Below are positions 10,750 to 45,791 of a stretch of 64,000 nt of DNA, piece by piece. A program made the translations under genes and the position numbers. This DNA comes from Deltaproteobacteria bacterium ADurb.Bin151 (GTDB lineage: Bacteria; Desulfobacterota; Syntrophia; Syntrophales; Smithellaceae). Location: NCBI GenBank assembly GCA_002070455.1, contig MWDG01000003.1:7626-71625 (forward strand). The letters are read 5' to 3'. The notes under the pieces were generated by a model, which worked only from the letters and a program-made list of their open reading frames with translations, made no database searches and was not told the origin of the DNA. Within the stretch, counting starts at the first letter, position 1, and the number at the start of each line of letters is the position of its first letter.

Positions 10750-10763
10750 TCCGGAGGAAAGGC

Positions 10764-12075: not shown

Positions 12076-12139
12076 TTCGGGTGGATAAAGTGTGCCAGGA
12101 ACATGGCCTGATCTGAAGCATTTTTCAAAGGAGTTTGTG

Positions 12140-28730: not shown

Positions 28731-31700
28731 GTGATAAAAGATAACGAAAAAGTTGGTGCAGTAATGGTGGTTGGCGCTGGAATCGCCGGTATCCAGGCCT
28801 CCCTTGATTTAGCCAATTCCGGAATGAAGGTTTATCTCGTTGAAAACGGGATCAGCATTGGCGGTGTTATGGCCCAGCTGGACAAGACCTTCCCCACAAA
28901 TGATTGTTCCGCCTGTATTCTCTCTCCCAAGCTTGTCGAAGTTGGCCGTCACCCGAACGTCAACATTATGACAAGACGGACCGTCGAGACCGTGGAAGGA
29001 GAGCCCGGAAAGTTCAAGGTTAAACTCACGTCCGCACCCCGCTATGTCAATCTGGACAAATGCACCGGTTGCGGAGATTGCGCAAATGTCTGCCCGATTA
29101 CGGTCAAGGCCGCATTCAATGGCAATTTAAGCGAAAGAAAAGCAATATACCGGCACTTCCCCCAGGCGATTCCCAGCGGTTTTGCCATAGACAAACTGGG
29201 GACATCCCCCTGTAAAGCCAATTGTCCCACCCATATCAGTGTTCAGGGTTATGTGGCACTCATTGCCGATGGAAAATTCAAGGAAGCCCTCAAACTCATC
29301 AAACAGGACAACCCTTTCCCCATCGTCTGCGGACGCGTCTGCAACCATCCGTGCGAGACGGCCTGTATGCGCGGCAAGGTGGATGAACCGATCGACATCA
29401 TGCATCTGAAGCGTTTTGTCGCGGACCTGGACCTCAACAGCGATACCCGATACCTGCCCGAAAAGAAGGAAAGCAATGGCAAGAAAGTTGCCGTAGTCGG
29501 CGCGGGTCCGTCAGGACTTACGTGTGCGTACTACCTGGCGATTGAAGGTTATGAGGTGGTGGTTTACGAAGCCCTGCCGGTGGCGGGCGGCTGGATGGCT
29601 GTCGGCATTCCCGAATACCGCCTGCCCAAGAATGTTCTCAATGCGGAAATTAAAGTCATTCAGGATCTGGGCGTAAAGATTTATCTCAATACCAGAATTG
29701 GCAGAGACATTCCCTTCGACAAACTGAAAAGCGATTTTGACGCGGTCTTTATCGGCTGCGGCACCATGAAGAGCAGCAAGCTCAATATCCCCGGCGAAGA
29801 CATGCAGGGTGTGATCCATGGCGTGGATTACCTGATGCAGATCAACCTGGGCAAGCAGCTTTTCCTGGGAGACCGGGTTGCCGTTATCGGCGGTGGAAAC
29901 GTGGCCATGGACGCCGTTCGCACAGCCGTCAGAACCGGATCGAAAAATGTGTTTATCCTCTATCGACGGACCCGTGCTGAAATGCCCGCTTCACCCGAAG
30001 AAATCGAAGAAGCGATTGAAGAAGGAATTGAGATGAAATTCCTCGTTGCCCCGAAACGGGTTGTGGGCAAGGATGGAAAAGTCACCGGCATCGAATGTGC
30101 GAGGATGGAACTGGGCGAGCCGGATGCAAGCGGACGACGCCGTCCCATCGAGATCAAGGGGTCCGAATTCATCGTTGAATGCGATGCCATTGTTCCCGCC
30201 ATCGGTCAGGAGGCGGACCTCTCCTTTATTACGAAGGAAAGCGGAGTCTCCATTAACAAATGGAACAATGTCGATTACGACAAGGTCACTTTTGCAACCA
30301 ATGTTCCCGGTGTTTTCTCCGGCGGCGACGTAGTCACCGGACCGCAAACCGTTGTCAAAGCCGTCTTTTCCGGTAAGGAAGCGGCCAAATCCATCGACCG
30401 CTATCTGCAGGGCGTGGATATGAAGGCAGGCCGTGAGAAAGACTGGACCAAAGACCTCGCGGACAAAGCCGATGTTTCCGATGTTCCCAAGGTCCCCCGT
30501 GAAAAATACCCGAACATGAAACCGGAAGAGCGACGCACCAGTTTCCAGGAAGTCGGAATCGGCTTTTCGGAAGCCCAGGCGATCGCGGAAGCTAATCGCT
30601 GCCTGGCCTGCGGCATTTGTTCGGAATGTTATCAGTGCGTTGACGCCTGTATTGCCAAAGCCATTGATCATGAGATGAAAGCGGAAGAAGAGACGATTGA
30701 AGTCGGTGCCGTGATCGCCGCGCCCGGTTTTGAAATCTTTGATGCCAGCAAACGTGGAGAGTATGGTTATGGCATTTATAAAAATGTGGTGACGGCGCTG
30801 CAGTTTGAGCGGATCCTTTCCGCTTCCGGCCCCTATTTTGGACACGTCCAGAGAATTTCTGACGGTAAGGAACCGAAGAAGATCGCCTTTATTCAATGCG
30901 TAGGTTCGCGCGATGTTTCCTGCGGCAACAGCTGGTGTTCTTCGGTCTGCTGCATGTACGCGACAAAAGAGGCCATTATCGGAAAAGAACACGCAAAGGG
31001 GCTCGAACCGACAATTTTCTTCATGGATATCCGTGCCCATGGCAAGGATTTTGACCGTTTCGTCAATCGTGCCAAGGACGAATACGGTATTCGCTACATC
31101 CGCTCCATGCCGTCCTCTATCAAAGAACTGCAGCAGAACAACAATCTGCTTATCAAGTACACCAACCCGGACGGCAGTTTCACCGAAGAAGAATTCGACA
31201 TGGTGGTGCTGTCTGTGGGTCTGATGCCGCCCAAGGAAGCCAAAAAACTTTCCGCCAGCCTCGGCATCGAGCTCGAAGAGCACGGTTTCTGCAAAACGCA
31301 GCTTGAAAATCCCGTCAAGACATCGCGTCCCGGCGTGTTTGTCTGCGGCGCCTTTGGTGGCCCGAAAGACATTCCGGAAACGGTCATGGAGGCTTCGGCT
31401 GCTGCGGCCTGTGCGGAAGGGATGCTGGCCGGTAAACGCGGCACGATGATTACACCCGTGGAAAATCCGGAAGAAAAGGATATGCGCGGTCAGAGCGTGC
31501 GCACCGGTGTTTTTGTATGTCACTGCGGCATCAATATTGGCGGTGTTGTCAATGTCCCCGAAGTCCGCGACTTTGCGGCAACCCTGCCCACCGTTGTTTA
31601 TACGGCAGACAATCTCTTCACCTGTTCGCAGGATACCGCGGTGAAAATGGGGGAAGTCATCAAGGAACAAAACCTGACCCGCGTGGTCGTTGCTTCCTGT

Positions 31701-33164
31701 TCGCCCCGGACGCACGAGGGGCTTTTCCAGGAAAACTGCGAAAAGGCCGGCCTGAACCGCTATCTGTTTGAGATGGCCAATATCCGCGATCAGGATTCCT
31801 GGGTACACATGCATGAGCCGGAAAAAGCCACCCAAAAAGCCAAAGACCTGTTGAGGATGGCTGTGGCCAAGGCCCAGTATCTCAAACCGCTAAAACCCGG
31901 GCAGCTTTCTGTCAACCACCAGGCGTTGATTATCGGCGGTGGTCTGGCCGGTATAACCGCTGCCCTGTCTCTGGCGGATCAGGGTTTTGCGTCCTTCGTC
32001 ATTGAAAAAGAAGACCGTTTGGGCGGCAATTACAATCATCTGTATAAGACCCTTGAAGGTCTGGATACACGCGCTCACCTGAAAGGGCTGCTGGAAAAGG
32101 TTTACAACAATCCTTTAATTACCGTCGTAACGGGCGCCCATATTGAAAAGATTGAAGGATTTATCGGGAATTACAAAACCACTGTAAAAAACAAAGACGG
32201 CGAGAAAGTCTTCGAGCACGGGGTGGTGCTTGTAGCCATCGGTGCATACGAAAATGAACCGAAAGAATACCTCTACAAACAGAACGCAAAGGTCAAAACA
32301 CAAAGAGAGCTGGAAAAACTGATCTACGAAAAGGATCCGAAACTGGCCGCTGTGAAAAACGTAGTCATGATTCAGTGTGTGGGCAGCCGCAATGAAGAAA
32401 GACCTTACTGCAGCCGCTACTGTTGCGGTGAGGCGATCAAAAACGCTCTGGAACTTAAAGCGGCTGATCCGTCGCGTGATATTACAATTCTCTATCGTGA
32501 TATCCGTACTTTTGCTTTCAAGGAGGACTATTACAAGAAAGCCCGTGAAGCGAACATCAAATTCATTTCTTATGAAGAAAACCGCAAACCGGAAGTGGTT
32601 GCATCAGGTGATAAGGTGGAAGTAAAAGTCCATGATCCGATTTTGAATGAAACGGTGAATTTGTCCGCGGATGCAGTGGTGTTGAGTGTCGGCGTGGTGC
32701 CGAATCCGGAAAACGTTGCGATCGGCAATATGCTGAAAGTGCCCACCAATCAGGACGGTTTTTTCCTGGAAGCGCACGTCAAATTGCGTCCGGTTGATTT
32801 CGCAACCGACGGTGTATTTATGTGCGGTATGTCTCATTCGCCCAAGTATAGTGACGAGACAGTTACACAAGCCAACGCCGCGGTATCGCGCGCCTGTCTG
32901 ATTTTGACGCAGGATTACATCCAGGCGGAAGGTAAGACCGCCTATGTGAACAAGGAAAGATGTTCCGCATGCGGTTTGTGCGAAATCAACTGTCCTTACA
33001 GCGCTATCAGCGTGAATGTGGCAGAAGGCTGTGCCGAAGTGAACGCGGTTCTTTGTAAAGGCTGCGGCGTCTGCACCGCGTCCTGTCGTATGAATGCCGT
33101 GGATCTCAACGGCTTCAACAACGAAGAAGTGCTGGCACAGATATACAACATCAACGAAGGCTAA
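28731..33164 (+). CDS. hdrL: HdrL-type giant flavo-iron-sulfur protein: HdrA-like module split by a GltD-like NAD(P)H/FAD domain, followed by a second complete HdrA-like module
   Basis: GTG start. N-terminus VVGAGIAGIQASLDLA..DKTFPTNDCSACIL is HdrA-like. Residues ~150-560 are like glutamate synthase small subunit (CP.HI.VQGY...CGRVC.HPCE.AC.R, VAVVGAGPSGLTCAYYL). A second FVCHCG.NI...ASCSPR module follows, with C-terminal 2x[4Fe-4S] Cys clusters. Confidence 0.75.
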   Translation: MIKDNEKVGAVMVVGAGIAGIQASLDLANSGMKVYLVENGISIGGVMAQLDKTFPTNDCSACILSPKLVEVGRHPNVNIMTRRTVETVEGEPGKFKVKLTSAPRYVNLDKCTGCGDCANVCPITVKAAFNGNLSERKAIYRHFPQAIPSGFAIDKLGTSPCKANCPTHISVQGYVALIADGKFKEALKLIKQDNPFPIVCGRVCNHPCETACMRGKVDEPIDIMHLKRFVADLDLNSDTRYLPEKKESNGKKVAVVGAGPSGLTCAYYLAIEGYEVVVYEALPVAGGWMAVGIPEYRLPKNVLNAEIKVIQDLGVKIYLNTRIGRDIPFDKLKSDFDAVFIGCGTMKSSKLNIPGEDMQGVIHGVDYLMQINLGKQLFLGDRVAVIGGGNVAMDAVRTAVRTGSKNVFILYRRTRAEMPASPEEIEEAIEEGIEMKFLVAPKRVVGKDGKVTGIECARMELGEPDASGRRRPIEIKGSEFIVECDAIVPAIGQEADLSFITKESGVSINKWNNVDYDKVTFATNVPGVFSGGDVVTGPQTVVKAVFSGKEAAKSIDRYLQGVDMKAGREKDWTKDLADKADVSDVPKVPREKYPNMKPEERRTSFQEVGIGFSEAQAIAEANRCLACGICSECYQCVDACIAKAIDHEMKAEEETIEVGAVIAAPGFEIFDASKRGEYGYGIYKNVVTALQFERILSASGPYFGHVQRISDGKEPKKIAFIQCVGSRDVSCGNSWCSSVCCMYATKEAIIGKEHAKGLEPTIFFMDIRAHGKDFDRFVNRAKDEYGIRYIRSMPSSIKELQQNNNLLIKYTNPDGSFTEEEFDMVVLSVGLMPPKEAKKLSASLGIELEEHGFCKTQLENPVKTSRPGVFVCGAFGGPKDIPETVMEASAAAACAEGMLAGKRGTMITPVENPEEKDMRGQSVRTGVFVCHCGINIGGVVNVPEVRDFAATLPTVVYTADNLFTCSQDTAVKMGEVIKEQNLTRVVVASCSPRTHEGLFQENCEKAGLNRYLFEMANIRDQDSWVHMHEPEKATQKAKDLLRMAVAKAQYLKPLKPGQLSVNHQALIIGGGLAGITAALSLADQGFASFVIEKEDRLGGNYNHLYKTLEGLDTRAHLKGLLEKVYNNPLITVVTGAHIEKIEGFIGNYKTTVKNKDGEKVFEHGVVLVAIGAYENEPKEYLYKQNAKVKTQRELEKLIYEKDPKLAAVKNVVMIQCVGSRNEERPYCSRYCCGEAIKNALELKAADPSRDITILYRDIRTFAFKEDYYKKAREANIKFISYEENRKPEVVASGDKVEVKVHDPILNETVNLSADAVVLSVGVVPNPENVAIGNMLKVPTNQDGFFLEAHVKLRPVDFATDGVFMCGMSHSPKYSDETVTQANAAVSRACLILTQDYIQAEGKTAYVNKERCSACGLCEINCPYSAISVNVAEGCAEVNAVLCKGCGVCTASCRMNAVDLNGFNNEEVLAQIYNINEG

Positions 33165-33200
33165 CGGCTCAAAACCGTACAGCCTCTGGAAGGAGAATAT

Positions 33201-33641
33201 ATGGCTGAAAACGTAGCAAACAAAGAATGGGAACCGAAATTCGTTGCCATTGTCTGCAACTGGTGCACCTATGCGGGTGCCGACCTGGCGGGGATCAGCA
33301 GAATTCAGTATCCGACAAATGTTCGGATCATCCGCGTTCCCTGTACGGGAAGGATAAATCCTTTTTATATCGTGAAAGCCCTGCAGACAGGTGCCGACGG
33401 CGTTCTGGTTTCGGGTTGACACCCGGGTGAATGCCACTATACCTCAGGAAATCTGGTGGCACGGCGCAAGTTTGCGACGTTAAAAAGTTTCCTGAATTAC
33501 ATCGGTGTGGAAGGTGACAGAACCATATTTACCTGGGTTTCTGCATCCGAAGGTGACCGGTGGGCACAGGTCATCAAAGGCGCTACGGAAAAAATAAGGG
33601 CGCTGGGGCCGGCCAATAAGCTGATTAAGAAGATTGCGTAG
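33201..33641 (+). CDS. flxD: MvhD/FlxD-like [2Fe-2S] protein with in-frame UGA at 33417-33419 (candidate selenocysteine)
   Basis: ORFs 33201..33419 and 33456..33641 are in the same frame, separated only by one TGA. The read-through product ...[24 protein letters not shown]... aligns residue-for-residue with the paralogue at 41976 (...[24 protein letters not shown]...). Confidence 0.75.
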
Positions 33642-33683
33642 TCTGATAAAAGATAATCATTAATAAACGGGGAAATCATCACT

Positions 33684-34694
33684 GTGGAAAACATCGAAAC
33701 AAAATTGCGGGAAGAAGCAAACAGGCTGCTCTTGGAAAAGAAGGTCGACGTGATCATCGGCTTTGAAAAAGGTACGCTTCCATTAACGGCGACACCGTGC
33801 TTTATCACGAAGCCGGAAGAAGCCGACAAGCTTGTCTGGAATAATCTCTGCACGCAGAACCTGGCTAAATTTGTGCACGATCTGATCACGGCACATAAGA
33901 ATTCGCAAAAGCGGGTGAAGCCGGAGGATCGAAAGAAAAAAGTCATTGGCGTCGTCGCCCGTGGCTGTACAACTCGTTCGCTCATCATCCACCTGCAGGA
34001 GAGGCAGTACGGAAGAGATGAAGTCTTTATTATCGGCGTTCCCTGCGATGGTTATGTGGACGGAAAAGGCCTGAAAGTGAAGATAAACGGGGCGGACATT
34101 ATCGAGGGATCGATGGACGGCGCCCAGATTAAAATGAAGACTTCCGACGGCGACAAAACCGTTGATTTCAAAGATGTGCTGGCAGACTGCTGCAAGACCT
34201 GCCGTTTCAACAATCCCATTATTTCCGACGTTATGATCGGATCGCCCGCGCCGCCAATGAATCCCGATGCGGAATACGACGATGTCAAGGAATTTGAAGC
34301 GAAAACGATTGAAGAGCGTTGGGCTTACTTTGCGAAAGAAATGGAAAAGTGCATCCGTTGCTACGCGTGCCGCCAGGCCTGCCCTTCCTGCTACTGTCCG
34401 ACCTGCTTTGTCGAACAGAGCCAGCCTCAATGGGTGGGCATCGGAGAGGATGCCACGGATACCCAGGTGTTTCAGTTCATGCGCCTGTATCACATGGTTG
34501 GTCGCTGCGTGGACTGCGGTTCCTGCGTTTCCGTCTGTCCGATGGGCGTGGATTTGAGGAAGTTCCTGAAGAAACTCGACAAGGATTGCCTCGAATTCTT
34601 CGGCAACCGGGCCGGCTCCAGCATGGAAGATATGCCGCCACTGGGCAAATTTGACGAACATCACGATAAACAAGATTTTATCTACAACCCATAA
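33684..34694 (+). CDS. flxC: FlxC-like iron-sulfur protein (2x[4Fe-4S] ferredoxin-type domain)
   Basis: GTG start. CIRCYACRQACPSCYCPTC and CVDCGSCVSVCP cluster motifs. Paralogue of 42407..43273. Confidence 0.6.
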   Translation: MENIETKLREEANRLLLEKKVDVIIGFEKGTLPLTATPCFITKPEEADKLVWNNLCTQNLAKFVHDLITAHKNSQKRVKPEDRKKKVIGVVARGCTTRSLIIHLQERQYGRDEVFIIGVPCDGYVDGKGLKVKINGADIIEGSMDGAQIKMKTSDGDKTVDFKDVLADCCKTCRFNNPIISDVMIGSPAPPMNPDAEYDDVKEFEAKTIEERWAYFAKEMEKCIRCYACRQACPSCYCPTCFVEQSQPQWVGIGEDATDTQVFQFMRLYHMVGRCVDCGSCVSVCPMGVDLRKFLKKLDKDCLEFFGNRAGSSMEDMPPLGKFDEHHDKQDFIYNP

Positions 34695-34718
34695 TTCGTT
34701 CGAGAAGATGGAGTTTAC

Positions 34719-35246
34719 ATGGAAACTTTTCTGGAAGCAGTGAATAAAAAAATACATGGTGTTCCATTGCAGGCCTGTTACCACTGCAGGAAGTGCTCGG
34801 CAGGCTGCCCCGCCGCGTCCTACATGGAATTTAACCCCAATAAAGTTATAAAAATGATCCAGAACGGGCAGAAAGACAAGGTGCTTTCGAGCTCCACCAT
34901 CTGGCTGTGCCTGTCTTGCGAAACCTGCATCACCCGTTGTCCCAATCAGGTCGATATCGCGCGGATGATGGACGTCCTTCGGCAGATGGCCATTGAAGAA
35001 GGTGTTGCCGCCAGGGAAGCAAATGTCCTGAAGTTCCACGAGGCATTCCTCTCCAGCATCAAGTTCGGTGGTCGCGTCCATGAAATGTTGATGACGGTTC
35101 ACTACAAGCTTAAGTCCGGTGACTTCTTCTCGGATGTGGACATTGCACCGTCAATGTTCCTTAAGGGAAAGCTGGCGCTTCTGCCGCCGCGGACCAAAGA
35201 TATGAAGTCGGTGAAGAATATTTTTGAGAAGACGAAAACAAAATGA
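34719..35246 (+). CDS. hdrC: Heterodisulfide reductase subunit C-like
   Basis: CYHCRKCSAGCP and CLSCETCITRCP motifs, with size (175 aa) and context typical of HdrC. Confidence 0.8.
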   Translation: METFLEAVNKKIHGVPLQACYHCRKCSAGCPAASYMEFNPNKVIKMIQNGQKDKVLSSSTIWLCLSCETCITRCPNQVDIARMMDVLRQMAIEEGVAAREANVLKFHEAFLSSIKFGGRVHEMLMTVHYKLKSGDFFSDVDIAPSMFLKGKLALLPPRTKDMKSVKNIFEKTKTK

Positions 35247-35314
35247 TGATGGAATATCGCGCGTCGCGCCGGAAGCCTGATGCGCTGTACCAAGCATAGA
35301 AGGAGGCTACTCTC

Positions 35315-36163
35315 TTGAAAGTTTCATATTATCCGGGTTGCTCGCTGCATGCGATGGGAAAAGAGTATGATCAGTCCATGAAGGCCGTGAGCCGCGCCCT
35401 CAACATCGAACTCAAAGAAGTTGACGATTGGTCCTGCTGCGGAGCATCCGCCGCGCATAATACCAATTTCGACCTGTCCATTGCCTTGCCGGCGCGGAAT
35501 CTCATCGCCGCCGAAAAAGATGCGATGGATGTGATGGTCCCCTGCGCCGCCTGTTTCAACCGCTTTAAAATGGCGGAGCATCATCTGAAGGCCGACAAAG
35601 ACCTGAAAGCCCGTATTGAAGGCGTCCTGGGCGCTAAATATCAGGGCGGCATCGCCATCCGCAATCCGATTGACGTGATATACAATGAAATCGGGATCGA
35701 TGCGCTGGCGGCGAAAGTCGTGAAGCCTATGGCGGGTCTGAAGCCGGTTTCCTATTACGGCTGTCTGCTTTTGCGTCCGCCCGAAGTATGCCAGTTTGAA
35801 AATTATGAAAATCCCTTCATGCTCGACAAAATGATGGGAGCCATCGGCGCCGATGTGAAAAACTGGTCATACAAGACCGATTGCTGCGGTGGTTCGCTGT
35901 CGGTCAGCAAGACGGCCATTGTGGTGGAGATGTGCGACAAGCTGATGGGTGGAGCCCGTGAAGCCGGTGCCAACTGTGTGGTGACGGCCTGTCCGATGTG
36001 CATGGCCAACCTGGAAATGCGTCCGAGCCCGAACATGAAAATGCCGGTCTTTTATTTTACGGAATTGCTTTCGTTGGCCCTGGATCTTCCCGGTTCGAAA
36101 GATACCTTCAAGTCGCATCTGACGGATGTGCAGCCGTTGTTGAGTCAGTTGCGATTGGTTTAA
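35315..36163 (+). CDS. hdrB: Heterodisulfide reductase subunit B-like (two CCG domains)
   Basis: TTG start follows GAAGGAGG. YYPGCSL, WSCCGAS and TDCCGGS CCG-domain motifs. Confidence 0.8.
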   Translation: MKVSYYPGCSLHAMGKEYDQSMKAVSRALNIELKEVDDWSCCGASAAHNTNFDLSIALPARNLIAAEKDAMDVMVPCAACFNRFKMAEHHLKADKDLKARIEGVLGAKYQGGIAIRNPIDVIYNEIGIDALAAKVVKPMAGLKPVSYYGCLLLRPPEVCQFENYENPFMLDKMMGAIGADVKNWSYKTDCCGGSLSVSKTAIVVEMCDKLMGGAREAGANCVVTACPMCMANLEMRPSPNMKMPVFYFTELLSLALDLPGSKDTFKSHLTDVQPLLSQLRLV

Positions 36164-36232
36164 ATGAAGCTGATAAAACCCCGACGCTGTGAAAAATGTA
36201 ACGTTGGATAAAATAATAATTTAGGGACAATT

Positions 36233-37255
36233 ATGGAAAAACGTTTGATCAAAAAAGATGCGCTGGCAGGCATTGCCAAAAAAATGGCCGGAGATCTCCT
36301 GGTTTGGGCGCCGGTAAAGAAAGAGGACAACGTTCTTTTTGCACCTCTCGGATCCGGTGATGAACCTTTCTTTGCTTACTTGAATTCCAAAAACGCGCCG
36401 AAGAATGTTTTCTTCCCTCACACGGAGACCCTGATGAAATTCACCCGCACGCCGAAGGGGATGGTATTTTCGTCAGAGACAAATCAAGCCGCGCAGTCGG
36501 TCTTATTTGGTGTGCGCCCCTGCGACGCCCACAGCTTCGTCCTTCTGGATAAGCTTTTCGATCAGGAGAAATACAAGGACGGCTATTATATCGAAAAACG
36601 GAAAAGCACGACGGTAATCTCGCTGGCTTGTGTCAAGCCGCCTTACGCGACCTGCTTCTGCACATCGGTGGACGGAGAACCGGTTTCCGCTGAAGGTGCG
36701 GACATTCTGCTTACCGATATCGGGGGCGATTATCTGGCGGAATTTATCACCGAAAAGGGTGAAAAGCTCGCGAAGTACTTTGGAGAGACAAAAGCCGACG
36801 CCGCGGCGGACACAAAGAAATCGGAAATCGCCACAAAGGCCAAAGAGTCGATTGCCTCGAAGATTCCCGCGCATGAAATCAAGCCGATTCTGGACGTCAA
36901 TTTTGATAATCCCTTCTGGAACACGATCCATGGCAAGTGTCTGGCCTGCGGGACCTGTACCTACATGTGCCCCACCTGTCACTGTTTCGATATCAGCGAT
37001 GAAGTCAAGGGATCAGACGGGGTGCGTATCCGTTCGTGGGATTCCTGCATGTTCCCGCTGTTTACAAAAGAAACATCAGGGCATAATCCGCGCTCTTCCC
37101 AGAAAGAAAGATGGCGTCAGCGCGCGATGCACAAGTTCAAGTATTATGTGGACATGTTTAATGCAATTGCCTGTGTCGGTTGCGGCCGTTGTGTCATGAG
37201 TTGTCCCGTAAATATTGATATCCGTAAAGTTGTTGAAGATATCTCAAAATTATAA
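36233..37255 (+). CDS. flxB: FlxB-like iron-sulfur protein (AsrA / sulfhydrogenase beta-subunit-like)
   Basis: GVRPCD motif. CLACGTCTYMCPTCHCFD and CVGCGRCVMSCP clusters. Confidence 0.6.
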   Translation: MEKRLIKKDALAGIAKKMAGDLLVWAPVKKEDNVLFAPLGSGDEPFFAYLNSKNAPKNVFFPHTETLMKFTRTPKGMVFSSETNQAAQSVLFGVRPCDAHSFVLLDKLFDQEKYKDGYYIEKRKSTTVISLACVKPPYATCFCTSVDGEPVSAEGADILLTDIGGDYLAEFITEKGEKLAKYFGETKADAAADTKKSEIATKAKESIASKIPAHEIKPILDVNFDNPFWNTIHGKCLACGTCTYMCPTCHCFDISDEVKGSDGVRIRSWDSCMFPLFTKETSGHNPRSSQKERWRQRAMHKFKYYVDMFNAIACVGCGRCVMSCPVNIDIRKVVEDISKL

Positions 37256-37269
37256 ACAGGGAGTTCGTA

Positions 37270-38109
37270 ATGCAAAACCCGTATATTCCTTATCCCGTAA
37301 TCGTGGATAAAATCATTACTGAAGTCGATACCAAAGACATCAAGACCTTCCGGTTCAAGTTTGTCAATCCGGAAGACGAGCAGAAGTATGCATATATCCC
37401 CGGCCAGTTTGGTGAACTTTCCATCTACGGCAAGGGAGAATCACCCATTGGAATTGCTTCCTCTCCAACGCAGAAAGGTTATGTTGAATTTACTGTGCAG
37501 AAAGCCGGTGTGGTTACCTCGGCGCTCCATGAAATGGAAGAAGGCATGATGATGGGTATTCGCGGGCCGCTGGGCAACTCCTGGCCGCTCGAATTTCTCG
37601 AAGGGAAAAACATTGTGATTGTCGGCGGCGGTTTCGCGTTTACAACGCTCCGGTCGCTGATTAATTACATGATATACGGTGACAACCGCAAGCGTTTCGG
37701 CAACATCACCGTGATTTACGGTGCGAGAAATCCCGGTTTACTGCTTTATAAAGATGAGCTGATCGAATGGCAGAAACGGGATGATTTGAATATAAATGTT
37801 ACTGTTGATAAAGGCGACGCGACCTGGAAGGGCAGGGAAGGATTCGTTCCTGCCGTCTGCAAGGAAGTCGCTCCCAGCAAGGAAAACGCGGTTGCCGTGA
37901 TCTGCGGTCCCCCTGTGATGATCCGTTTTACCCTGCCGGTGTTCTTTGAACTCGGCTTTTCGAAGGAAAACATCATTACATCACTGGAAATGCGGATGAA
38001 ATGCGGCATCGGAAAGTGCGGCCGCTGCAATGTCGGCAGCAAATATGTCTGCAAGGACGGCCCGGTCTTTACGCTGGCGGAGCTGGATAAACTGACGCCG
38101 GAATACTAA
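37270..38109 (+). CDS. flxA: FlxA-like FAD/NAD(P)H-binding oxidoreductase with C-terminal [2Fe-2S] (AsrB/HydG-like)
   Basis: PGQF...GESP (FAD-binding), VGGG.AFTTLRS (NAD-binding), CGIGKCGRCNVG cluster motif. Confidence 0.65.
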   Translation: MQNPYIPYPVIVDKIITEVDTKDIKTFRFKFVNPEDEQKYAYIPGQFGELSIYGKGESPIGIASSPTQKGYVEFTVQKAGVVTSALHEMEEGMMMGIRGPLGNSWPLEFLEGKNIVIVGGGFAFTTLRSLINYMIYGDNRKRFGNITVIYGARNPGLLLYKDELIEWQKRDDLNINVTVDKGDATWKGREGFVPAVCKEVAPSKENAVAVICGPPVMIRFTLPVFFELGFSKENIITSLEMRMKCGIGKCGRCNVGSKYVCKDGPVFTLAELDKLTPEY

Positions 38110-38287: not shown

Positions 38288-39463
38288 ATGTCACAGACAG
38301 TTACACCCTATCTGGAAATGTCCCAGGCAATTATCGAGGCCGGCGGGGAAGCGCTGAAGAAATGTTACCAGTGCGGCACCTGCGCAGGCACCTGCCCATG
38401 GACACCGATCACTGATTTTAATATCCGTAAACTCGTGCGTTACGGCCAACTGGGACTGGACGGGATTGAAGAGTTCATGTGGGGTTGCTCCACCTGTAAG
38501 TTCTGCGTGGAACGCTGTCCCCGAGGGGTTGAAATCATCGATATTGTGACAGCCATCCGCAATGTATACAGCGGCGGCGGCCTGCTGCCGCAGAGTCTGC
38601 GCGCTTTTGTCGGGTCGCTTTCGGCAAGGGGCAACCCCTGGTCCGGCGATCAGGCAAAAAGAAACGACTGGGCCAGAGATAAATATCCTCTTTACACGTC
38701 CGATAAAGAATATTTGTATTGGACCTGTTGTACGGTTTGTTACGATCCGCGCAACATCCGTCTGGCCAAGGCGACTGCCGAATTGCTGAATCTTTCGGGA
38801 TTAAGCTGGGGGATTCCTTCCATTGATGTCAATTGCTGTGGTGAGAGTCTGAAAAAGGTTGGCGATCTGGAGCTTTTTGAAAGGCTGAAAAACAAAAACC
38901 TGGACTATTTCAAATCCCAGGGGGTTACTAAAATCATCACCGGTTCCCCGCACTGCCTGGCGTCTTTCAATAAAGATTACGGTGTAGATTACGAGGTCGT
39001 GCACATCAGCGAACTGATGGCCGAATGGATAAAAAACGGTAAAATTGTTCCCAAAAAAGATTTTGGCGGCCTGAAGGTCACCTATCATGATCCCTGTTAT
39101 CTGGGCCGGCACAGTAAAGTGTTTGATGCGCCACGGGAGATCCTGAAATCCCTGCCCGGTGTCGAATTTATCGAGATGGAACGAAACAGTGAAGAGAGCA
39201 TGTGCTGCGGTGGCGGTGGCGGCGGATTATGGATGGAAAAAGCCAAGGGAGAGCGTCTGAGTGATCTCAGAATTGAAGAAGCCATGGGTACGGGCGCAAC
39301 CGTTCTGGCGACGGCATGTCCCTATTGCATTACCATGTTTGAAGACAGCAGCCGAACGCTGAATGTGGATGACCAGATTAAGATCAAAGATCTGACGGAG
39401 CTGCTTCTGGAGAGTTTGGAAATCAGCATTGACGAGCCGGTTGTGGATACGTGTGCCCTTTAG
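38288..39463 (+). CDS. HdrD/GlcF-like Fe-S oxidoreductase (N-terminal 2x[4Fe-4S] fused to two CCG domains)
   Basis: CYQCGTCAGTCP and CSTCKFCVERCP, then NCCGESL and MCCGGGGG CCG-domain motifs. Confidence 0.75.
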   Translation: MSQTVTPYLEMSQAIIEAGGEALKKCYQCGTCAGTCPWTPITDFNIRKLVRYGQLGLDGIEEFMWGCSTCKFCVERCPRGVEIIDIVTAIRNVYSGGGLLPQSLRAFVGSLSARGNPWSGDQAKRNDWARDKYPLYTSDKEYLYWTCCTVCYDPRNIRLAKATAELLNLSGLSWGIPSIDVNCCGESLKKVGDLELFERLKNKNLDYFKSQGVTKIITGSPHCLASFNKDYGVDYEVVHISELMAEWIKNGKIVPKKDFGGLKVTYHDPCYLGRHSKVFDAPREILKSLPGVEFIEMERNSEESMCCGGGGGGLWMEKAKGERLSDLRIEEAMGTGATVLATACPYCITMFEDSSRTLNVDDQIKIKDLTELLLESLEISIDEPVVDTCAL

Positions 39464-39586
39464 ATGACGTTGCCGCCAACGGTATATATGTTGGCAATTG
39501 GGAGAAAATGATCTCTATAATTCAATTATTTAACTGGATACCGGTTTTCGCCGGCATGACGATAGAGAAACAACTCAGGAGATAGT

Positions 39587-41536
39587 ATGAGCAGAATTGG
39601 TGTATTTGTTTGCCACTGCGGTTTAAATATAGCCAAGACGGTTCGGGTGAGTGAACTGGCCCAGTTTGCGGCCACACTGCCGGACGTGGTTGTCGCAAAA
39701 GACTACAAGTTCATGTGTTCCACGCCCGGTCAGGAAATGATTGCCAATGACATTAAAGAACACAGACTGGATCGCGTGATTGTAACTGCCTGTTCGCCCC
39801 TGATGCATGAACAGACCTTCCGCAAAGTTTTAGCAGCGTCCGGACTGAATCAGTATCTTCTGACGATTGTCAACATCCGTGAGCAGGTGTCCTGGGTTAC
39901 GCATGATATTGAAGAAGGAACATCCAAGGCCAAGGCGCTTCTCAACGGTGCGGTTGCCCGGGCCAGGCTTCTGGCTCCCCTGACGTCGCGGGTGATCGAC
40001 GTCAATCCCGATGTGATGGTAGTAGGCGGCGGTATTGCAGGTATTCAGGCCTCGCTGGAACTGGCCAACACCGGCAAGAAGGTTTATCTTGTTGAAAAAA
40101 ACTCCACCATCGGCGGCCACATGGCTCAGTTTGATAAAACCTTTCCCACGCTGGACTGCTCCGCCTGTATTCTCACCCCCAAGATGGATGCCGTCCTGCA
40201 GCATAAAAATATTACACTTATGACATCCTGTGAAGTGACGGAAGTCAAGGGATTTGTCGGCAACTTCGATATTACAATAAAACAGAAAGCGCGCTACGTG
40301 GATCACGACAAGTGCAACGCCTGTCTGGCCTGTACGGAAAAATGCCCCGGCAAGGGGACATCAGAATGGGATGAAGGTCTGGTGAAGAGAAAAGCCATCT
40401 ACATTCCGTTTCCGCAGGCTGTGCCGCAAAAGCCGGTCATCGATCGGGAATCCTGTACATTCTTTAAGAAAGGCAAATGCCGCCTGTGTGAAAAGGTCTG
40501 CGAGCAGAAAGCCATCGACTTTGAACAGCAGGATACCTTCACCACTGTGAAGGTCGGGGCTGTCATTGTGGCGACCGGTTATGATCTCATGGATACCAGG
40601 GAACTCATTCAATACGGTTACGGTAAATATCCCGGTGTTTACAACGCGCTGGAAGTGGAAAGGCTCTTCAATTCCGCCGGACCCACAGGCGGCAAGGTGA
40701 CGCTCCGGGACGGCAAGGAACCGCATGCCATTGCCATTTTCCACTGTATTGGAAGCCGAGATAAAAACAACTATGAGCACTGCAGCCGGGTTTGCTGCAT
40801 GTATTCTCTCAAATTTGCACATTTGTTCAAGGAAAAGACTTCTGCAGATGTGTATCAGTTTTACATTGACATGCGCGCCGCCGGCAAAGGCTATGAAGAA
40901 TTTTACAACCGTATTATTGAAGAGGATGTGAAATTCATCCGCGGCAAGGGTGCGCGTGTGGCCGCTAGCGTTGATGAACCGGGACGTCTGGTTGTCGAGG
41001 CGGAGGATACCATCACAGGCAAATTCATCAAACTGCCCGTGGATATGGTTGTCCTTTCCCCGGCCATGATACCGAGGTCGGACGCGAGGGATATTGCCAG
41101 GCTCTTTAATCTGAGCACGGATAAGCAGGGATTTTTCATGGAGAGGCATCCGAAACTGGCCCCCCTTTCCACAATGTCCGAAGGTATCTTTATTGCCGGA
41201 GTCTGTCAGAGCCCCAAGGACATTCCGGACACCGTGGCACAGGCCAACGGCGCGGCGGCGGAAGCGCTGACCATTGTCGTCAAAGATAAAATGGAACTGG
41301 AGGCAACCACGGCGATGGTGAATCCGGCATCGTGCTGTGCCTGCCAGAACTGCGTTCGTGTCTGTCCGTATGGCGCTCCGTTCTTCAATGAGCAGAAAGG
41401 TGTGTCCGAAATTAACGAAGCCCTGTGCAAGGGATGTGGTCTTTGTGCGTCCGTCTGCCCGACGGGGGCGATTATTGCACGGCATTTTACAAATGATCAG
41501 GTGTTGGCAGAAATGGAAGGCCTCATGGAGTTCTAG
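39587..41536 (+). CDS. hdrA: Heterodisulfide reductase subunit A-like flavoprotein
   Basis: FVCHCG.NI, TACSP, VVGGGIAGIQASLELA, DKTFPTLDCSACIL, CIGSRD, CSRVCCMY, and C-terminal CCACQNCVRVCP / CKGCGLCASVCP. Confidence 0.85.
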   Translation: MSRIGVFVCHCGLNIAKTVRVSELAQFAATLPDVVVAKDYKFMCSTPGQEMIANDIKEHRLDRVIVTACSPLMHEQTFRKVLAASGLNQYLLTIVNIREQVSWVTHDIEEGTSKAKALLNGAVARARLLAPLTSRVIDVNPDVMVVGGGIAGIQASLELANTGKKVYLVEKNSTIGGHMAQFDKTFPTLDCSACILTPKMDAVLQHKNITLMTSCEVTEVKGFVGNFDITIKQKARYVDHDKCNACLACTEKCPGKGTSEWDEGLVKRKAIYIPFPQAVPQKPVIDRESCTFFKKGKCRLCEKVCEQKAIDFEQQDTFTTVKVGAVIVATGYDLMDTRELIQYGYGKYPGVYNALEVERLFNSAGPTGGKVTLRDGKEPHAIAIFHCIGSRDKNNYEHCSRVCCMYSLKFAHLFKEKTSADVYQFYIDMRAAGKGYEEFYNRIIEEDVKFIRGKGARVAASVDEPGRLVVEAEDTITGKFIKLPVDMVVLSPAMIPRSDARDIARLFNLSTDKQGFFMERHPKLAPLSTMSEGIFIAGVCQSPKDIPDTVAQANGAAAEALTIVVKDKMELEATTAMVNPASCCACQNCVRVCPYGAPFFNEQKGVSEINEALCKGCGLCASVCPTGAIIARHFTNDQVLAEMEGLMEF

Positions 41537-41627
41537 GTATGACGTTATAAAAATCCCATATGCTGCGTTGCGCTCCGTTCGCATTGCTGCGACCTACGAA
41601 AAAGTAGGCCTCGCGCTGCGATACTCA

Positions 41628-41832
41628 CGCGCCTTGCCTCTGGAATTTTTCTTAACGTCATTAAAGACTGTGCAAAAGAAAATAAGTCTGTCAGGTGCCG
41701 CGCATCTGGAACACTTTTGAACGACATAAGGGAAGTAGGGTTGTAGAAAAAAATATGACGTCATAGATATCTTATGGAAGGAAAAAAGATCTATGAGGCA
41801 CGCCTTGCCTCTGGAATTTTTCTTAACGTCAT
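41628..41832 (+). repeat. Pair of 34-nt direct repeats (41628-41661 and 41799-41832) inside the hdrA-flxD spacer
   Basis: C(G/A)CGCCTTGCCTCTGGAATTTTTCTTAACGTCAT occurs twice, 33/34 identical by eye, 171 nt apart. Confidence 0.85.
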
Positions 41833-41861
41833 CAATGATAGAGTATTTTGTATAAAAGCGT

Positions 41862-41945
41862 GTCATTTCGAGGAGCGAAGCGACGAGAAATCTTATGACC
41901 GGGCAACAGGAGTTCAATCGGATTTCTCCCGATGGTCGAAATGAC
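41862..41945 (+). repeat. 84-nt nested-palindrome element immediately upstream of the flxD SD
   Basis: Outer inverted repeat GTCATTTCGA (41862-41871) / TCGAAATGAC (41936-41945). Inner inverted repeat GAGAAATC (41885-41892) / GATTTCTC (41921-41928). The architecture matches the 130-nt element family at 49655, 56418 and 61971. Confidence 0.7.
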
Positions 41946-41975
41946 CGTAGAGTAGATGAGTGGAAAGGATAGTCT

Positions 41976-42392
41976 ATGTCATTTGAACCGAAAATCTTAG
42001 GCATTGCCTGCAACTGGTGCACCTATACGGGCGCGGACCTGGCGGGAACCACAAGACTGCAGTATCCGCAAAATACCAGGGTGGTGCGTGTGATGTGCTC
42101 CAGCCGGATCAACCCGTCCTTCATTTTCCGTGCCTTTCAGCTTGGCGCGGACGGCGTTTTAGTGGGCGGCTGCCATCCCGGCGACTGCCATTATAATACA
42201 GGTAACCTTTATGCCCGAAGGCGATTGGCCGTGACTAAAAAGATCCTGGAATTTTCCGGAATGGAACCGGGAAGGTTCCGTGTGGAATGGATTTCCGCTT
42301 CCGAAGGCAATAAGTTCGCCGAAGTTGTCAGGGAATTCACCGAACAGATTAGAAATCTCGGTCCGCAGACAAAGTTCAAGATTGAAAAATAA
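41976..42392 (+). CDS. flxD: MvhD/FlxD-like [2Fe-2S] protein (Cys version)
   Basis: ILGIACNWCTY.GADLAG...GADGVLVGGCHPGDCHY. Paralogue of 33201..33641. Confidence 0.8.
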   Translation: MSFEPKILGIACNWCTYTGADLAGTTRLQYPQNTRVVRVMCSSRINPSFIFRAFQLGADGVLVGGCHPGDCHYNTGNLYARRRLAVTKKILEFSGMEPGRFRVEWISASEGNKFAEVVREFTEQIRNLGPQTKFKIEK

Positions 42393-42406
42393 ATTCGGGA
42401 GAAGAT

Positions 42407-43273
42407 ATGGCAACAAGCTTTAAGCAAATTGAGGAAAACCTGAAAAACGAAGCCAGGAAACTTCTGGAAGAAGGTAAGGTGAGTCTGGTTCTGGCTTACG
42501 GCAGGGGTTACGATGAAGATCATCCCGTGCCCTTTGTAGCCAGAGTTGTGGCGGATGTGGAGAATATGGTTTTCAATGAATACTGTACGGCCAATATGGC
42601 ACGATACCTGGTTCGTTATCCGCGGGGCACAAAGATGGCGATTGCCGTTAAACCGGCTGACAGCCGTGCCGTAGTCCAACTTATTCAGGAAGACAAAATT
42701 AAGCGCGAAGATGTGATTCTCCTGGGGATCCCGGTGATCGGCATGAAAAATTCAAAAACCGGGGAAGTAATCGACAGCAAAACGACCTGCGGAATGTATA
42801 ATCCTGTTTTGTATGATGTGCTGCTGGGTGAAGAAATTCATGGTCAGACTGTTGTTTCGCCGTACGATGTCCTTGCCGAATACGAAACGATGGACAAAGA
42901 CGCGCGTTTTGCTTTCTGGAAGAAGGAATTTGATAAATGCATCCGCTGCTATGCCTGCCGTAAAGCCTGTCCGATGTGCTATTGCGATCCCTGCTTTATC
43001 GATCAGAATAAACCGAAGTGGGGTGATAAATCCCCGCAATCCCACGGCAACCTGATGTATCATCTGACACGGTTTCATCATCTGGCCGGCCGGTGCATCG
43101 ACTGCGGCGAATGTTCGCGGGCCTGTCCGGTGGATATTCCATTGTATTTATTCCACAAGAAGGTGGCCAAAGAGTGTGAGGAAATGTTTGGTCAGGCCGC
43201 CGGCAAGAGTATCCAGGACAAGCCGGTTCTGGTGAATTTCCGCGTGGATGATTCTGATAAAATTCTGGAATAA
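42407..43273 (+). CDS. flxC: FlxC-like iron-sulfur protein
   Basis: CIRCYACRKACPMCYCDPC and CIDCGECSRACP. Paralogue of 33684..34694. Confidence 0.6.
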   Translation: MATSFKQIEENLKNEARKLLEEGKVSLVLAYGRGYDEDHPVPFVARVVADVENMVFNEYCTANMARYLVRYPRGTKMAIAVKPADSRAVVQLIQEDKIKREDVILLGIPVIGMKNSKTGEVIDSKTTCGMYNPVLYDVLLGEEIHGQTVVSPYDVLAEYETMDKDARFAFWKKEFDKCIRCYACRKACPMCYCDPCFIDQNKPKWGDKSPQSHGNLMYHLTRFHHLAGRCIDCGECSRACPVDIPLYLFHKKVAKECEEMFGQAAGKSIQDKPVLVNFRVDDSDKILE

Positions 43274-43439
43274 TCGGTTAGACGTTTGGAGGATGTTCTG
43301 AACTAAAAATAGAATAGCTTGGCAAGTTGCATGGCATTAACCCAAGCCCGCAAACAAAGACTGCGGGATAAATTCGACTAAGTTTTTTGCTTTGCTTCCA
43401 GCTTGCAAAAAACAAGTCTCATTAATAAGGAGCTTTGTT

Positions 43440-44477
43440 GTGTTGAAGAAAACAGCAGTTCAAAAAATATCCGATCTGGCCGCGCAGCTGATGCAGAAGG
43501 GAACGCTGATCGCGCCTGTCCGGGAAGACGCGGGGTTTAATTTCCGTGAAATATCCGATGCCGGGCAGGTGGATTTGAATTTTTACAATACGCTGATGAG
43601 CCCAAAATCGGCCTTTTTCCCGCATATGGAAGATTTTGTCCGGTATCAGACCGGGAAGTCCGTTCTGGATGCCGTGCCTGTAGAAATCAGTATAAAACCG
43701 GCTTTCCTTTTTGGCGTGAGACCCTGCGATGTCAAGAGTTTCGAGATTATGGATATTCATTTCAGCGGCACCGGTGCAGTCGATCCCTACTGGCAGAAAA
43801 GAAGAGAAGCCACCACAATCTTCGGATATGCTTTCGACCTGAACACCCCGGCGGACGGGGCGGATTTCTATGCTACACTGGGAATCGGTGCGGCGGACCC
43901 TGAAGGCAGCGATGTTTTCATGATGAAAAAAGGCGATGAACTGCTGCTGAAAGCCGTCACGAAGAAAGGTGAAAAGCTCCTTGCCGAAATGAGCGGTCTT
44001 ACGGACGCGTCACCTGAAGATCAGAAATATTTTGATGAAACCGTTGCCACTGGCCGGTCTTTTAAAACACGTCTTACCTGTGTGGAGGCGAAGTCCATTG
44101 CTAAAAAGTTCGAGGATCTTTTCCACAAGACCCCGTTCTGGGAGCGGATTTCCGACGCCTGCTTAAGTTGCGGCATCTGCACTTTTGTCTGTCCCACCTG
44201 TTACTGCTTCGATATTTGTGATGAGACCCTTTTCGGCCAGGGAACACGCCGCCGTGTCTGGGACGCCTGTATGTTTACAGACTTCACCCTGGAAGCCAGC
44301 GGACACAACCCGCGCACAAAGGTTTATCAGCGCCTGCGCCAGAAAGTATGTCATAAATATTCATACCATGTCCGGAAGTACGGCGTGATTTCCTGTGTAG
44401 GATGCGGACGCTGCACGCGCGCCTGCCCGGTGAATATCGATATCTTCTCCATTGTGGATCAGGCCATGAAGGAATAG
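43440..44477 (+). CDS. flxB: FlxB-like iron-sulfur protein (AsrA-like)
   Basis: GTG at 43440 lies 7 nt after AAGGAG. GVRPCD. CLSCGICTFVCPTCYCFD and CVGCGRCTRACP. Confidence 0.6.
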   Translation: MLKKTAVQKISDLAAQLMQKGTLIAPVREDAGFNFREISDAGQVDLNFYNTLMSPKSAFFPHMEDFVRYQTGKSVLDAVPVEISIKPAFLFGVRPCDVKSFEIMDIHFSGTGAVDPYWQKRREATTIFGYAFDLNTPADGADFYATLGIGAADPEGSDVFMMKKGDELLLKAVTKKGEKLLAEMSGLTDASPEDQKYFDETVATGRSFKTRLTCVEAKSIAKKFEDLFHKTPFWERISDACLSCGICTFVCPTCYCFDICDETLFGQGTRRRVWDACMFTDFTLEASGHNPRTKVYQRLRQKVCHKYSYHVRKYGVISCVGCGRCTRACPVNIDIFSIVDQAMKE

Positions 44478-44514
44478 TTATAGAAAGATCACGAAATCGA
44501 GATTGAGGAAAAAT

Positions 44515-45375: not shown

Positions 45376-45389
45376 AAGAAAGGTTGATT

Positions 45390-45791
45390 ATGAAAAAACT
45401 ATTGATGGCTCTTGTCGTGATATTGTGTGCCGTTTCCACGGTTTTTGCCGCGGAAGATCTTTCAACAAAACTGGATAAGAACAAAGACGGCAAAGTCAGC
45501 AAAAAGGAATACACGAGTGCCGTGTCCAAAACATTTGATAAACTGGACAAGAACCGTGACGGGTCGATTACCCGTGATGAGCTCGGTCACATGGACAAAA
45601 AAGACCAGGAGACATTCATCAAAGAAAACGACGCGGACGGTGACGGGATTATTATAAAAAAAGAATTTGAACAGGCCGCCGAAAAAAGATTCCGGCAATT
45701 GGATAAGAACAGGAACGGTTTTATCAGCAAAGATGAATGGGCCGGTGGACGTTCCGAAATGTATTCGCCGTTTGCGCTTTTCACATTTTAA
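45390..45791 (+). CDS. Secreted EF-hand calcium-binding protein (four EF loops)
   Basis: Signal peptide MKKLLMALVVILCAVSTVFA. Loops DKNKDGKVSKKE, DKNRDGSITRDE, DADGDGIIIKKE, DKNRNGFISKDE. Confidence 0.75.
   Translation: MKKLLMALVVILCAVSTVFAAEDLSTKLDKNKDGKVSKKEYTSAVSKTFDKLDKNRDGSITRDELGHMDKKDQETFIKENDADGDGIIIKKEFEQAAEKRFRQLDKNRNGFISKDEWAGGRSEMYSPFALFTF

Follow-up and report, generated by a model that had tools for sequence, protein, structure and literature searches.

A probable selenocysteine codon in an mvhD/flpD-like gene of a Smithellaceae bacterium, followed by a constrained stretch of coding RNA

How the cell reads a UGA that stands in the middle of an otherwise intact and conserved gene is the question raised by a locus in Deltaproteobacteria bacterium ADurb.Bin151 (Smithellaceae), found in a 64,000-nt stretch of contig MWDG01000003.1 (assembly GCA_002070455.1, positions 7,626 to 71,625), the whole of which is here called the window. 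At 33201..33641 the window encodes a protein of the MvhD/FlpD type whose frame is interrupted by a single TGA, and the original prediction, made from the sequence alone, held this gene to be a candidate selenoprotein. In the explanation that we regard as highly probable, 33201..33641 is one gene for an MvhD/FlpD-type [2Fe-2S] electron-transfer subunit, in which codon 73 (UGA) would be decoded as selenocysteine (Sec) by the bacterial SelB and tRNA-Sec, the decoding being directed by mRNA structure within the first 75 nt on the 3' side of the UGA. In this Smithellaceae syntroph, the protein would serve as the adaptor subunit of HdrL-MvhD-HdrBC, a cytoplasmic complex that includes a module for NAD(P)H binding. 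The UGA itself is real and fixed, it falls at a Cys column, it is found in many genomes, and it is followed by a selected frame and by RNA whose constraint is specific to the UGA. The features of the gene are the following:

33201..33641, plus strand, mvhD/flpD-like gene, complete with the UGA read through: 146 residues (Sec at 73) and a TAG stop
33190..33195, plus strand, Shine-Dalgarno-like AAGGAG, 5 nt ahead of ATG 33201, read from the sequence
33417..33419, plus strand, UGA in frame at codon 73, the proposed Sec position, matching Cys67 in the MvhD of M. marburgensis and probably a [2Fe-2S] ligand
Conserved residues of the 33201..33641 product: C19 and C22 (CNWC), C48, U73 and C78 (G-U-H-P-G-E-C-H)
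33456..33641, plus strand, 61-aa 'ORF' from GTG 33456, a gene-caller artefact of the UGA stop and not regarded as a gene of its own
41976..42392, plus strand, MvhD paralogue with Cys, 57% identical and 138 aa long, part of the second Hdr/Flx-like cluster (38288..45375)

The frame from ATG 33201 to the TAG at 33639-33641 comprises 147 codons, and the TGA at 33417-33419 is its sole internal stop. The open reading frames (ORFs) 33201..33419 and 33456..33641 do lie in one frame and are parted by the TGA alone, as had been claimed, and the peptides quoted for them were exact. When C is substituted for the stop at codon 73, the product matches the Pfam profile PF02662 (FlpD, 'methyl-viologen-reducing hydrogenase delta subunit') over its full length (E=1.4e-50; positions 2-123 of 123 aligned with residues 15-136), and it aligns over the UGA without a gap to solved MvhD chains (7bkb_F, E=1.5e-46; 5odc_D, 5e-46), so that the homology continues to the natural stop, as the original prediction had stated; the chain 9sfi_K (F420-non-reducing hydrogenase subunit delta; presumably a VhuD with Sec) ranks sixth among the structure matches. 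For VhuD proper (NCBIfam NF045873), the product scores 129.3 bits, below the curated cutoff of 215. The claim that the UGA replaces an expected Cys is borne out by the paralogue 41976..42392, by all 120 of the best full-length homologues (86-94% identical; Smithella or Smithellaceae by their source names) and by the solved MvhD chains, which all have Cys at the column of codon 73. It had also been anticipated that an automated caller would split the gene, and gene callers indeed cut it into products of 72 and 61 aa, deposited in GenBank as the adjacent OQB57091.1 and OQB57092.1 and labelled as separate 'methyl-viologen-reducing hydrogenase delta subunit' proteins with no selenoprotein annotation.

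Because the best 120 homologues are all full-length proteins with Cys, an error or a recent nonsense mutation had to be considered. The exact 72-aa truncated product is, however, present in 359 blocks of the assembly collections (ENA, JGI, Logan and NCBI; independent assemblies, different assemblers), and the TGA is kept in 10 of the 10 loci read among those with the identical product, the two most divergent of which show four changes relative to the window, all synonymous. Clustering of the two gene halves at 90% identity gave 134 and 235 distinct fragment sequences, and it is solely the cutting by gene callers that hides full-length Sec forms from protein searches. A degenerate DNA pattern for D-G-x-x-x-x-G-[TGA]-H-x-G-x-C-H, scanned on one genome per prokaryotic species, matched at least 120 stretches of species-representative genomes with the TGA at codon 73. 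Among the matches listed, the frame and the MvhD homology persist for about 70 or more codons past the TGA wherever the contig continues; these matches include Desulfobacterales, Desulfobulbales, Syntrophobacterales and Syntrophales, the Firmicutes Desulforudis, Syntrophomonas and Gelria, Dehalococcoidia and others, and four of them are Smithellaceae orthologues of the window gene with 85-94.5% identity. The DNAs of Sec and Cys orthologues were gathered via exact-protein look-ups, and 24 distinct full-length TGA-carrying orthologous gene sequences were collected, all in a constant context of a 1475-1477-aa HdrL gene, the MvhD gene and a 335-336-aa Fe-S gene. TGA and Cys codons both occur at this column, the TGA being found in at least 120 species genomes and Cys in the best 120 homologues. 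Two of the pattern matches, L030 (second match, from a Desulfobacterales metagenome-assembled genome) and L091 (from one of Syntrophobacteraceae), have two in-frame TGAs each, in CTW-U (the CxxC motif) and in G-U-H, and appear to be double-Sec forms.

The part of the frame that lies beyond the TGA is under selection as protein. In comparisons with four species-level orthologues, the ratio of nonsynonymous to synonymous change (pN/pS) downstream of the TGA is 0.06-0.14 at pS 0.32-0.59, similar to that of the upstream part. Among the 12 codons between the TGA and GTG 33456, a stretch which contains the conserved Cys78, four codons vary only synonymously as against one amino-acid change. The low ratio and the conservation of these inter-ORF codons argue that the downstream half is translated in frame with the upstream half. 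The TGA is not an error and the gene is not a pseudogene.

A further signal is carried by the RNA on the 3' side of the UGA, where one block of low variation and two alternative structures, here called fold A and fold B, are of concern:

33420..33494, plus strand, block of low synonymous variation, 25 codons 3' of the UGA, in TGA carriers only, the putative footprint of a Sec insertion sequence (SECIS) region
33432..33461, plus strand, fold A, hairpin 33432-33439/33454-33461, 8-bp stem UGCCACUA/UGGUGGCA including one G.U, about -9.7 kcal/mol
33444..33495, plus strand, fold B, alternative structure with outer stem UCAGGAAA/UUUCCUGA, about -17 kcal/mol
33465-33476, plus strand, small hairpin inside fold B, CGCA-AGUU-UGCG

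Over codons +1..+24, the 24 Sec forms have a synonymous codon diversity of 0.043, whereas the codons upstream have 0.225 and those further downstream 0.302 (Mann-Whitney p=2.7e-7), and only 1 of 97 sliding windows is equally low. Counted as pairwise synonymous codon differences, the same 24 sequences give 0.045 in codons +1..+25 and 0.257 elsewhere in the gene (ratio 0.18, a 5.6-fold fall), and three Cys forms give 0.486 against 0.463 (ratio 1.05), which is no suppression at all. With five sequences this test had been suggestive only (p=0.07); with 24 it is decisive. The block is asymmetric, beginning exactly at the UGA, with none of the effect upstream, and stopping at codon +25 (33494); it is thus about 75 nt long, reaches nt 78 and has about twice the length of fold A. 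Synonymous suppression that is linked to the UGA in this way indicates an overlapping functional RNA, probably a recoding element larger than fold A.

Fold A, the hairpin noticed originally, is present as described and belongs to the predicted minimum-energy fold. It has a 14-nt loop and is separated from the UGA by a 12-nt spacer; numbered from the UGA, its stem occupies nt 16-23 and 38-45 and the GG of its loop nt 31-32. The consensus used in bSECISearch-type predictions is a stem-loop of the coding sequence, close to the UGA on its 3' side, whose apical loop measures 3-14 nt, contains a G and lies about 16-37 nt from the UGA. The geometry of fold A suits this consensus, its loop being at the upper limit, and the statement that the position is appropriate for a bacterial SECIS element therefore stands. 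The pairs of fold A are kept at 100% in 13 distinct sequences, with only U-A/U.G and C-G/U.G toggles. The small CC-UCA-GG apical extension that had been described with the hairpin fared less well, for it needs the Thr codon ACC that is specific to the window; other TGA orthologues have Ile (AUC/AUA) and are without it. Fold B is more stable than fold A (-17 against -9.7 kcal/mol), its 3' end matches the end of the constrained block, and the distance from the UGA to its apical loop is about 50 nt; over the variants its pairing is kept at 99.5%, the five pairs that vary doing so on one side and preserving a wobble in every case. Across the family, the Sec forms fold at nt 10-51 with -10.66 kcal/mol as against -7.23 for synonymous resamples (Wilcoxon p=1.4e-19), most hairpin loops being centred at nt 24-31. 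The dominant family hairpins are compact (CAUUACC-UGGAU-GGUAAUG or UGCCACUA-UGU-UAGUGGCA, for instance), and in the Smithellaceae hairpin this 5' arm is kept and the 3' arm comes 11 nt later, which makes the loop 14 nt long. We infer that the inserted residue is Sec, and the choice of the fold that serves as the SECIS is an assignment of the same kind. A constrained recoding region of about 75 nt with two competing folds, bigger than the usual minimal SECIS, would be modestly new. Longer folds also contain a small hairpin at 33410-33427 (CGGGU/ACCCG), made of the flanking Gly, His and Pro codons, whose 4-nt loop (UGAC) includes the UGA; the upstream arm of this hairpin varies at synonymous sites, and it is probably incidental for that reason.

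The Cys forms differ in how much of this RNA they keep. L136-L138 have undergone drift in their stem codons (TGT CAT TAC; GTT), and their hairpin is weaker, at -0.8 to -5.9 kcal/mol in place of about -9.7. L135 (ena:ERZ27313107:k141_290363, gene at 61-501), a Cys form (TGT) that is nested within the Sec clade of a small unbootstrapped neighbour-joining tree, still has a hairpin of -10.6 kcal/mol and all of the low-variation block (0.068 against 0.312), and it looks like a very recent conversion from Sec to Cys with a fossil SECIS. Interconversions in both directions, including 'fossil' SECIS elements in Cys forms, have been described for the MvhD family (PMC1794560), and it is the dense sampling of Sec and Cys within one orthologue group, the fossil-SECIS Cys form included, that is modestly new. 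The Cys copies L136 (GCA_029558195.1) and L138 (ena:ERZ27315034), 87% identical to the window protein, are found in other contexts, adjoining a gene for a 2-hydroxyacyl-CoA dehydratase D-component (HGD-D) or a HesB-like gene, which suggests that the subfamily has near-identical paralogues serving other complexes.

Several observations weigh against the proposed decoding as Sec or against a particular structure as its signal. Taken alone, fold A is not above chance (z=+0.43 against dinucleotide shuffles; z=-0.57 against synonymous-codon resampling, where 26% of the resamples fold equally well), as the amino-acid sequence C-H-Y...L-V-A predisposes the mRNA to a hairpin, and thus the presence of the hairpin noticed originally is upheld and its significance is not. 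No compensatory double change was found in fold A in alignments of 8 and 13 sequences, nor in fold B across its variants, so that the support by covariation that had been looked for among orthologues did not materialize and covariation counts do not tell A from B; the two folds are mutually exclusive and fit the data equally. Rfam finds no SECIS or other family at the site, either at gathering thresholds over the whole window or in a permissive search of 33350-33550, and the 14-nt loop of fold A departs from the 3-5-nt loops that dominate the family. The genes selA, selB, selC and selD were not found in the 64-kb window (Pfam on sizeable ORFs, ARAGORN) or in the collected loci, and a tblastn search of the latter with E. 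coli SelA, SelB and SelD (approximate query sequences) gave no match. Finally, very close relatives function with Cys, which means that Sec is not obligatory at this position.

Among the other explanations of the locus, an error of sequencing or assembly for TGC or TGT was suggested by the TGA being one base away from both and by the Cys of the closest full-length database proteins; it is refuted by the identical truncated product in 359 blocks from different assemblers and by the TGA in all loci read. A genome-wide reading of UGA as a sense codon, as in code 4 or 25, is likewise refuted: its sole point is the single in-frame TGA, whereas 11 of the 47 Pfam-supported genes of the window end at TGA as an ordinary stop, and a six-frame scan of the window detected no other in-frame TGA that joins two parts of a Pfam-supported gene. 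The normal use of TGA as a stop makes the recoding site-specific and not a matter of a variant genetic code. Other in-frame TGA candidates in the window were rejected, being alternative frames of known genes or lacking supporting homology, and none resembled another selenoprotein. A fixed nonsense pseudogene, or a true split gene that stops at 33419 and possibly makes a second 61-aa peptide from GTG 33456, seems to us very improbable. This view could draw on the two products in the gene calls and in GenBank, on a Shine-Dalgarno-like AGGA 6 nt ahead of the GTG, and on the Cys paralogue 8.7 kb away and the highly similar Cys copies of related genomes, which could cover the function. It has, however, to contend with a TGA retained at the same codon in 24 distinct orthologous sequences and at least 120 species, with the downstream pN/pS of 0.06-0.14, and with the 12 codons from the TGA to the GTG, including that of the ligand Cys78, which are conserved as protein; neither fragment alone would retain the four cluster ligands, and the UGA-specific fall in synonymous change is not expected of a pseudogene.

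More closely related to the preferred reading is the idea that UGA-73 is read as Cys, always or at low selenium, by a selC* opal-suppressor tRNA-Cys (anticodon UCA) together with a second SelB (SelB*), the mRNA element still being needed. The conserved UGA, the constrained RNA and the selected frame are equally compatible with such Cys decoding, and Cys is functional at the position of residue 73 in close relatives. Opal-suppressing selC* tRNA-Cys genes with a dedicated SelB* have been described in delta-proteobacteria (PMC5389517), where a composite Smithella genome is listed with selC* (a selC-like tRNA-Cys gene) and selB* lies downstream in Syntrophobacterales and Desulfobacterales, and suppression of the opal codon with Cys by selC* has been shown in E. 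coli (PMC5389517). No selC*, selB* or cysS* was found, however, in the window or the collected loci, the UCA anticodon of the Smithella selC* is not stated in the same report, and the family in question is well established as one that contains Sec where the ordinary machinery is present (PMC1794560, PMC2702500), all of which makes Cys decoding improbable in our judgement. A full selA/selB/selC/selD set is present in all selC-containing genomes (PMC5389517), and Syntrophus aciditrophicus, of the same order (Syntrophales), has 19 selenoproteins, four FrhD/MvhD among them, as well as SelD (PMC1794560). It is also conceivable, though unlikely, that the block 33420-33494, with the bipartite fold 33444-33495 as the alternative to the near hairpin, makes up a non-canonical recoding element of about 78 nt for dual Sec/Cys decoding of UGA-73. 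If this were true, a [2Fe-2S] ligand would switch between Se and S with the selenium supply, and recent Sec/Cys flips such as L135 would be snapshots of the process. The decoding of UGA-73 as Sec by SelB and tRNA-Sec remains by far the most probable reading, and the candidate selenoprotein call that prompted this analysis is upheld by the Cys column, the TGA in at least 120 species genomes, the downstream purifying selection and the membership of a known selenoprotein family.

The likely role of the protein follows from its neighbours, which are listed here:

28731..33164, plus strand, upstream partner, HdrL-type fusion of HdrA modules and a GltD-like NAD(P)H-binding module, 1477 aa, no in-frame UGA
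33684..38109, plus strand, downstream operon partners: Fe-S protein of 336 aa, HdrC-like protein of 175 aa, HdrB-like protein of 282 aa
Within 33684..38109, plus strand, further operon partners: AsrA/ShyB-like Fe-S beta subunit of 340 aa, AsrB/ShyC-like FAD/NAD(P)H gamma subunit of 279 aa

The MvhD gene directly follows the HdrA-type gene and is clustered with HdrB and HdrC genes, in an order that is the same in all orthologous loci, and there is no hydrogenase large or small subunit in the 64-kb window and no MvhA or MvhG beside 33201..33641. Hdr-type neighbours without hydrogenase subunits point to a [2Fe-2S] adaptor of the MvhD type that belongs to a cytoplasmic Hdr/Flx-type complex rather than to a hydrogenase. 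The complex is presumably of the Flx/Hdr type and flavin-based electron-bifurcating, the activity of HdrL-MvhD-HdrBC being a deduction from its genes. In the alignment with the M. marburgensis MvhD (9sw2_D, 5odc_D), C19 and C22 of the window protein correspond to Cys13 and Cys16, C48 to Cys42, U73 to Cys67, H74 to His68, E77 to Asp71 and C78 to Cys72. In MvhD, Cys16 is an 'additional' conserved cysteine between the cluster and FAD, and His68 and Asp71 face a Cys pair of HdrA (PMC13580544). Besides residue 73, the window protein has only four Cys (19, 22, 48 and 78), and as the equivalent of C22 (Cys16) is not a ligand, Sec73 would by elimination be one of the four [2Fe-2S] ligands. Judged from this alignment, Sec73 probably ligates the cluster beside the His/Asp(Glu) pair that faces HdrA. 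A 2026 review gives 'CxxU' as the family motif (PMC13188914); the proposed Sec of the window is at the other position, G-U-H, which is shared by at least 120 genomes.

Two paralogous Hdr/Flx-like clusters lie in tandem here (28731-38109 and 38288-45375), and the UGA is found in the first alone. The second has the order HdrD-like, HdrA, MvhD(Cys), Fe-S, Fer4_22 protein and FAD/NAD subunit; between its hdrA and its Cys-mvhD there are 439 nt (41537-41975) with no convincing ORF or Rfam match. On a related contig (L004, 710-2572), three ORFs on the reverse strand (374, 124 and 61 aa) stand in the place of hdrA. At the end of the second cluster, 45315-45791 encodes a 158-aa protein with two strong EF-hand motifs, whose gene, as called, shares 61 nt with that of the FAD/NAD subunit, and just past the cluster, 46597-48780 encodes a 727-aa protein of the aldehyde:ferredoxin oxidoreductase (AOR) family, longer than typical AORs. 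The AOR-type BamB partners HdrA/MvhD-like subunits in class II benzoyl-CoA reductase; BamGHI-like genes are not present here. Elsewhere in the window, a 233-aa ORF with a TTG start (11374-12075) and no Pfam match lies in the histidine operon, between hisB (10746-11351) and hisF (12092-12871), in the place expected for hisH or hisA, with an in-frame TGA 75 nt upstream of its start. A tRNA-Met (CAT) at 17438-17513 and a bacterial class A RNase P RNA at 18914-19286 (332.9 bits) are both downstream of dnaG-rpoD, the latter directly preceded by an RNase H-like gene at 18456-18875.

Smithella-type syntrophs are key degraders of propionate and alkanes in digesters, and for the window gene, as for hundreds of its orthologues, the public records give two short fragments named 'hydrogenase delta subunit'. 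As a result, metabolic reconstructions of such organisms miscount a subunit of the Hdr complex and miss a probable selenium requirement. The lineage also offers a closely sampled interchange of Sec and Cys at a probable Fe-S ligand, with Sec forms, a Cys form whose recoding RNA persists and older Cys forms whose RNA has decayed, and it could be used for studying the rise and erosion of a SECIS within a coding sequence.

Compared with known systems, the locus combines familiar parts in a somewhat different arrangement. The SECIS of E. coli fdhF is a minimal hairpin of 17 nt, 11 nt past the UGA, with a G/U-containing loop that is bound by SelB. The candidate of the window is likewise a stem-loop in the coding sequence, with fold A at the canonical spacing, 12 nt past the UGA, and G residues in its loop, but this loop has 14 nt, there is no bulged U, and the constrained block is about twice as long as the minimal SECIS. 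FlxABCD-HdrABC of Desulfovibrio, in which FlxD is the MvhD-like subunit, is NADH-dependent and has been proposed to be electron-bifurcating. In terms of gene content, it shares with the window the combination of an MvhD-like protein with HdrA-like, HdrB, HdrC, FAD/NAD(P)H and Fe-S subunits; the HdrA module of the window differs in that it takes the form of an HdrL fusion of 1477 aa, which has a GltD-like NAD(P)H site of its own. The archaeal VhuD, likewise a selenoprotein, is a homologue that connects an electron-input module with HdrA as a [2Fe-2S] adaptor; its two-Sec form resembles the bacterial L030 and L091 (CTWU and GUH), whereas the window protein has one Sec instead of two, scores below the NF045873 cutoff and has no MvhA or MvhG adjacent to it. 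Archaeal SECIS elements, moreover, are located in the 3' UTR (untranslated region) and not in the coding sequence.

BamF of the class II benzoyl-CoA reductase of Geobacter metallireducens is also an MvhD-homologous, Sec-containing [2Fe-2S] adaptor to an HdrA-type bifurcating flavoprotein (bioRxiv 10.64898/2026.04.10.717634). Its Sec19, however, is at the CxxU position, that of the cysteine which adjoins the cluster without being a ligand (equivalent to C22 of the window and to Cys16), as opposed to the probable ligand at G-U-H in the window protein; BamF is more than 100 residues longer, and the window has no BamGHI (NuoEFG-like) genes. The nearest relatives are the bacterial Sec-containing FrhD/MvhD proteins, and the original prediction was right that this family is already known (PMC1794560, PMC2702500, PMC13188914). 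PF02662/COG1908 ('FrhD/MvhD') was the third largest bacterial selenoprotein family in a 2006 census, with eight Sec-FrhD/MvhD in Syntrophobacter fumaroxidans and four in Syntrophus aciditrophicus (Zhang et al. 2006, PMC1794560), and Sec-containing MvhD/VhuD/'FrhD' have been known since the methanococcal Vhu work, with conversions in both directions (PMC1794560, PMC2933860, PMC9312934, PMC13188914). Desulfobacterium autotrophicum has four Sec-MvhD (mvhD1/2/3/5) beside hdrA/hdrL (Strittmatter et al. 2009, PMC2702500), and the pairing of HdrL with Sec-MvhD is common to it and the window (PMC2702500), although its hdrL1 and hdrL3 carry Sec and the HdrL partner of the window does not. The window gene shares with the bacterial family the Pfam domain, the size, the place right after the HdrA/HdrL gene, Sec in the position of a conserved Cys and the presence of Sec and Cys paralogues together in one genome, and it differs in having been deposited as two fragments and in the 14-nt, not compact, loop of its candidate SECIS. 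Sec-MvhD itself is not new, and the window gene is a new, mis-annotated Smithellaceae member of this known family.

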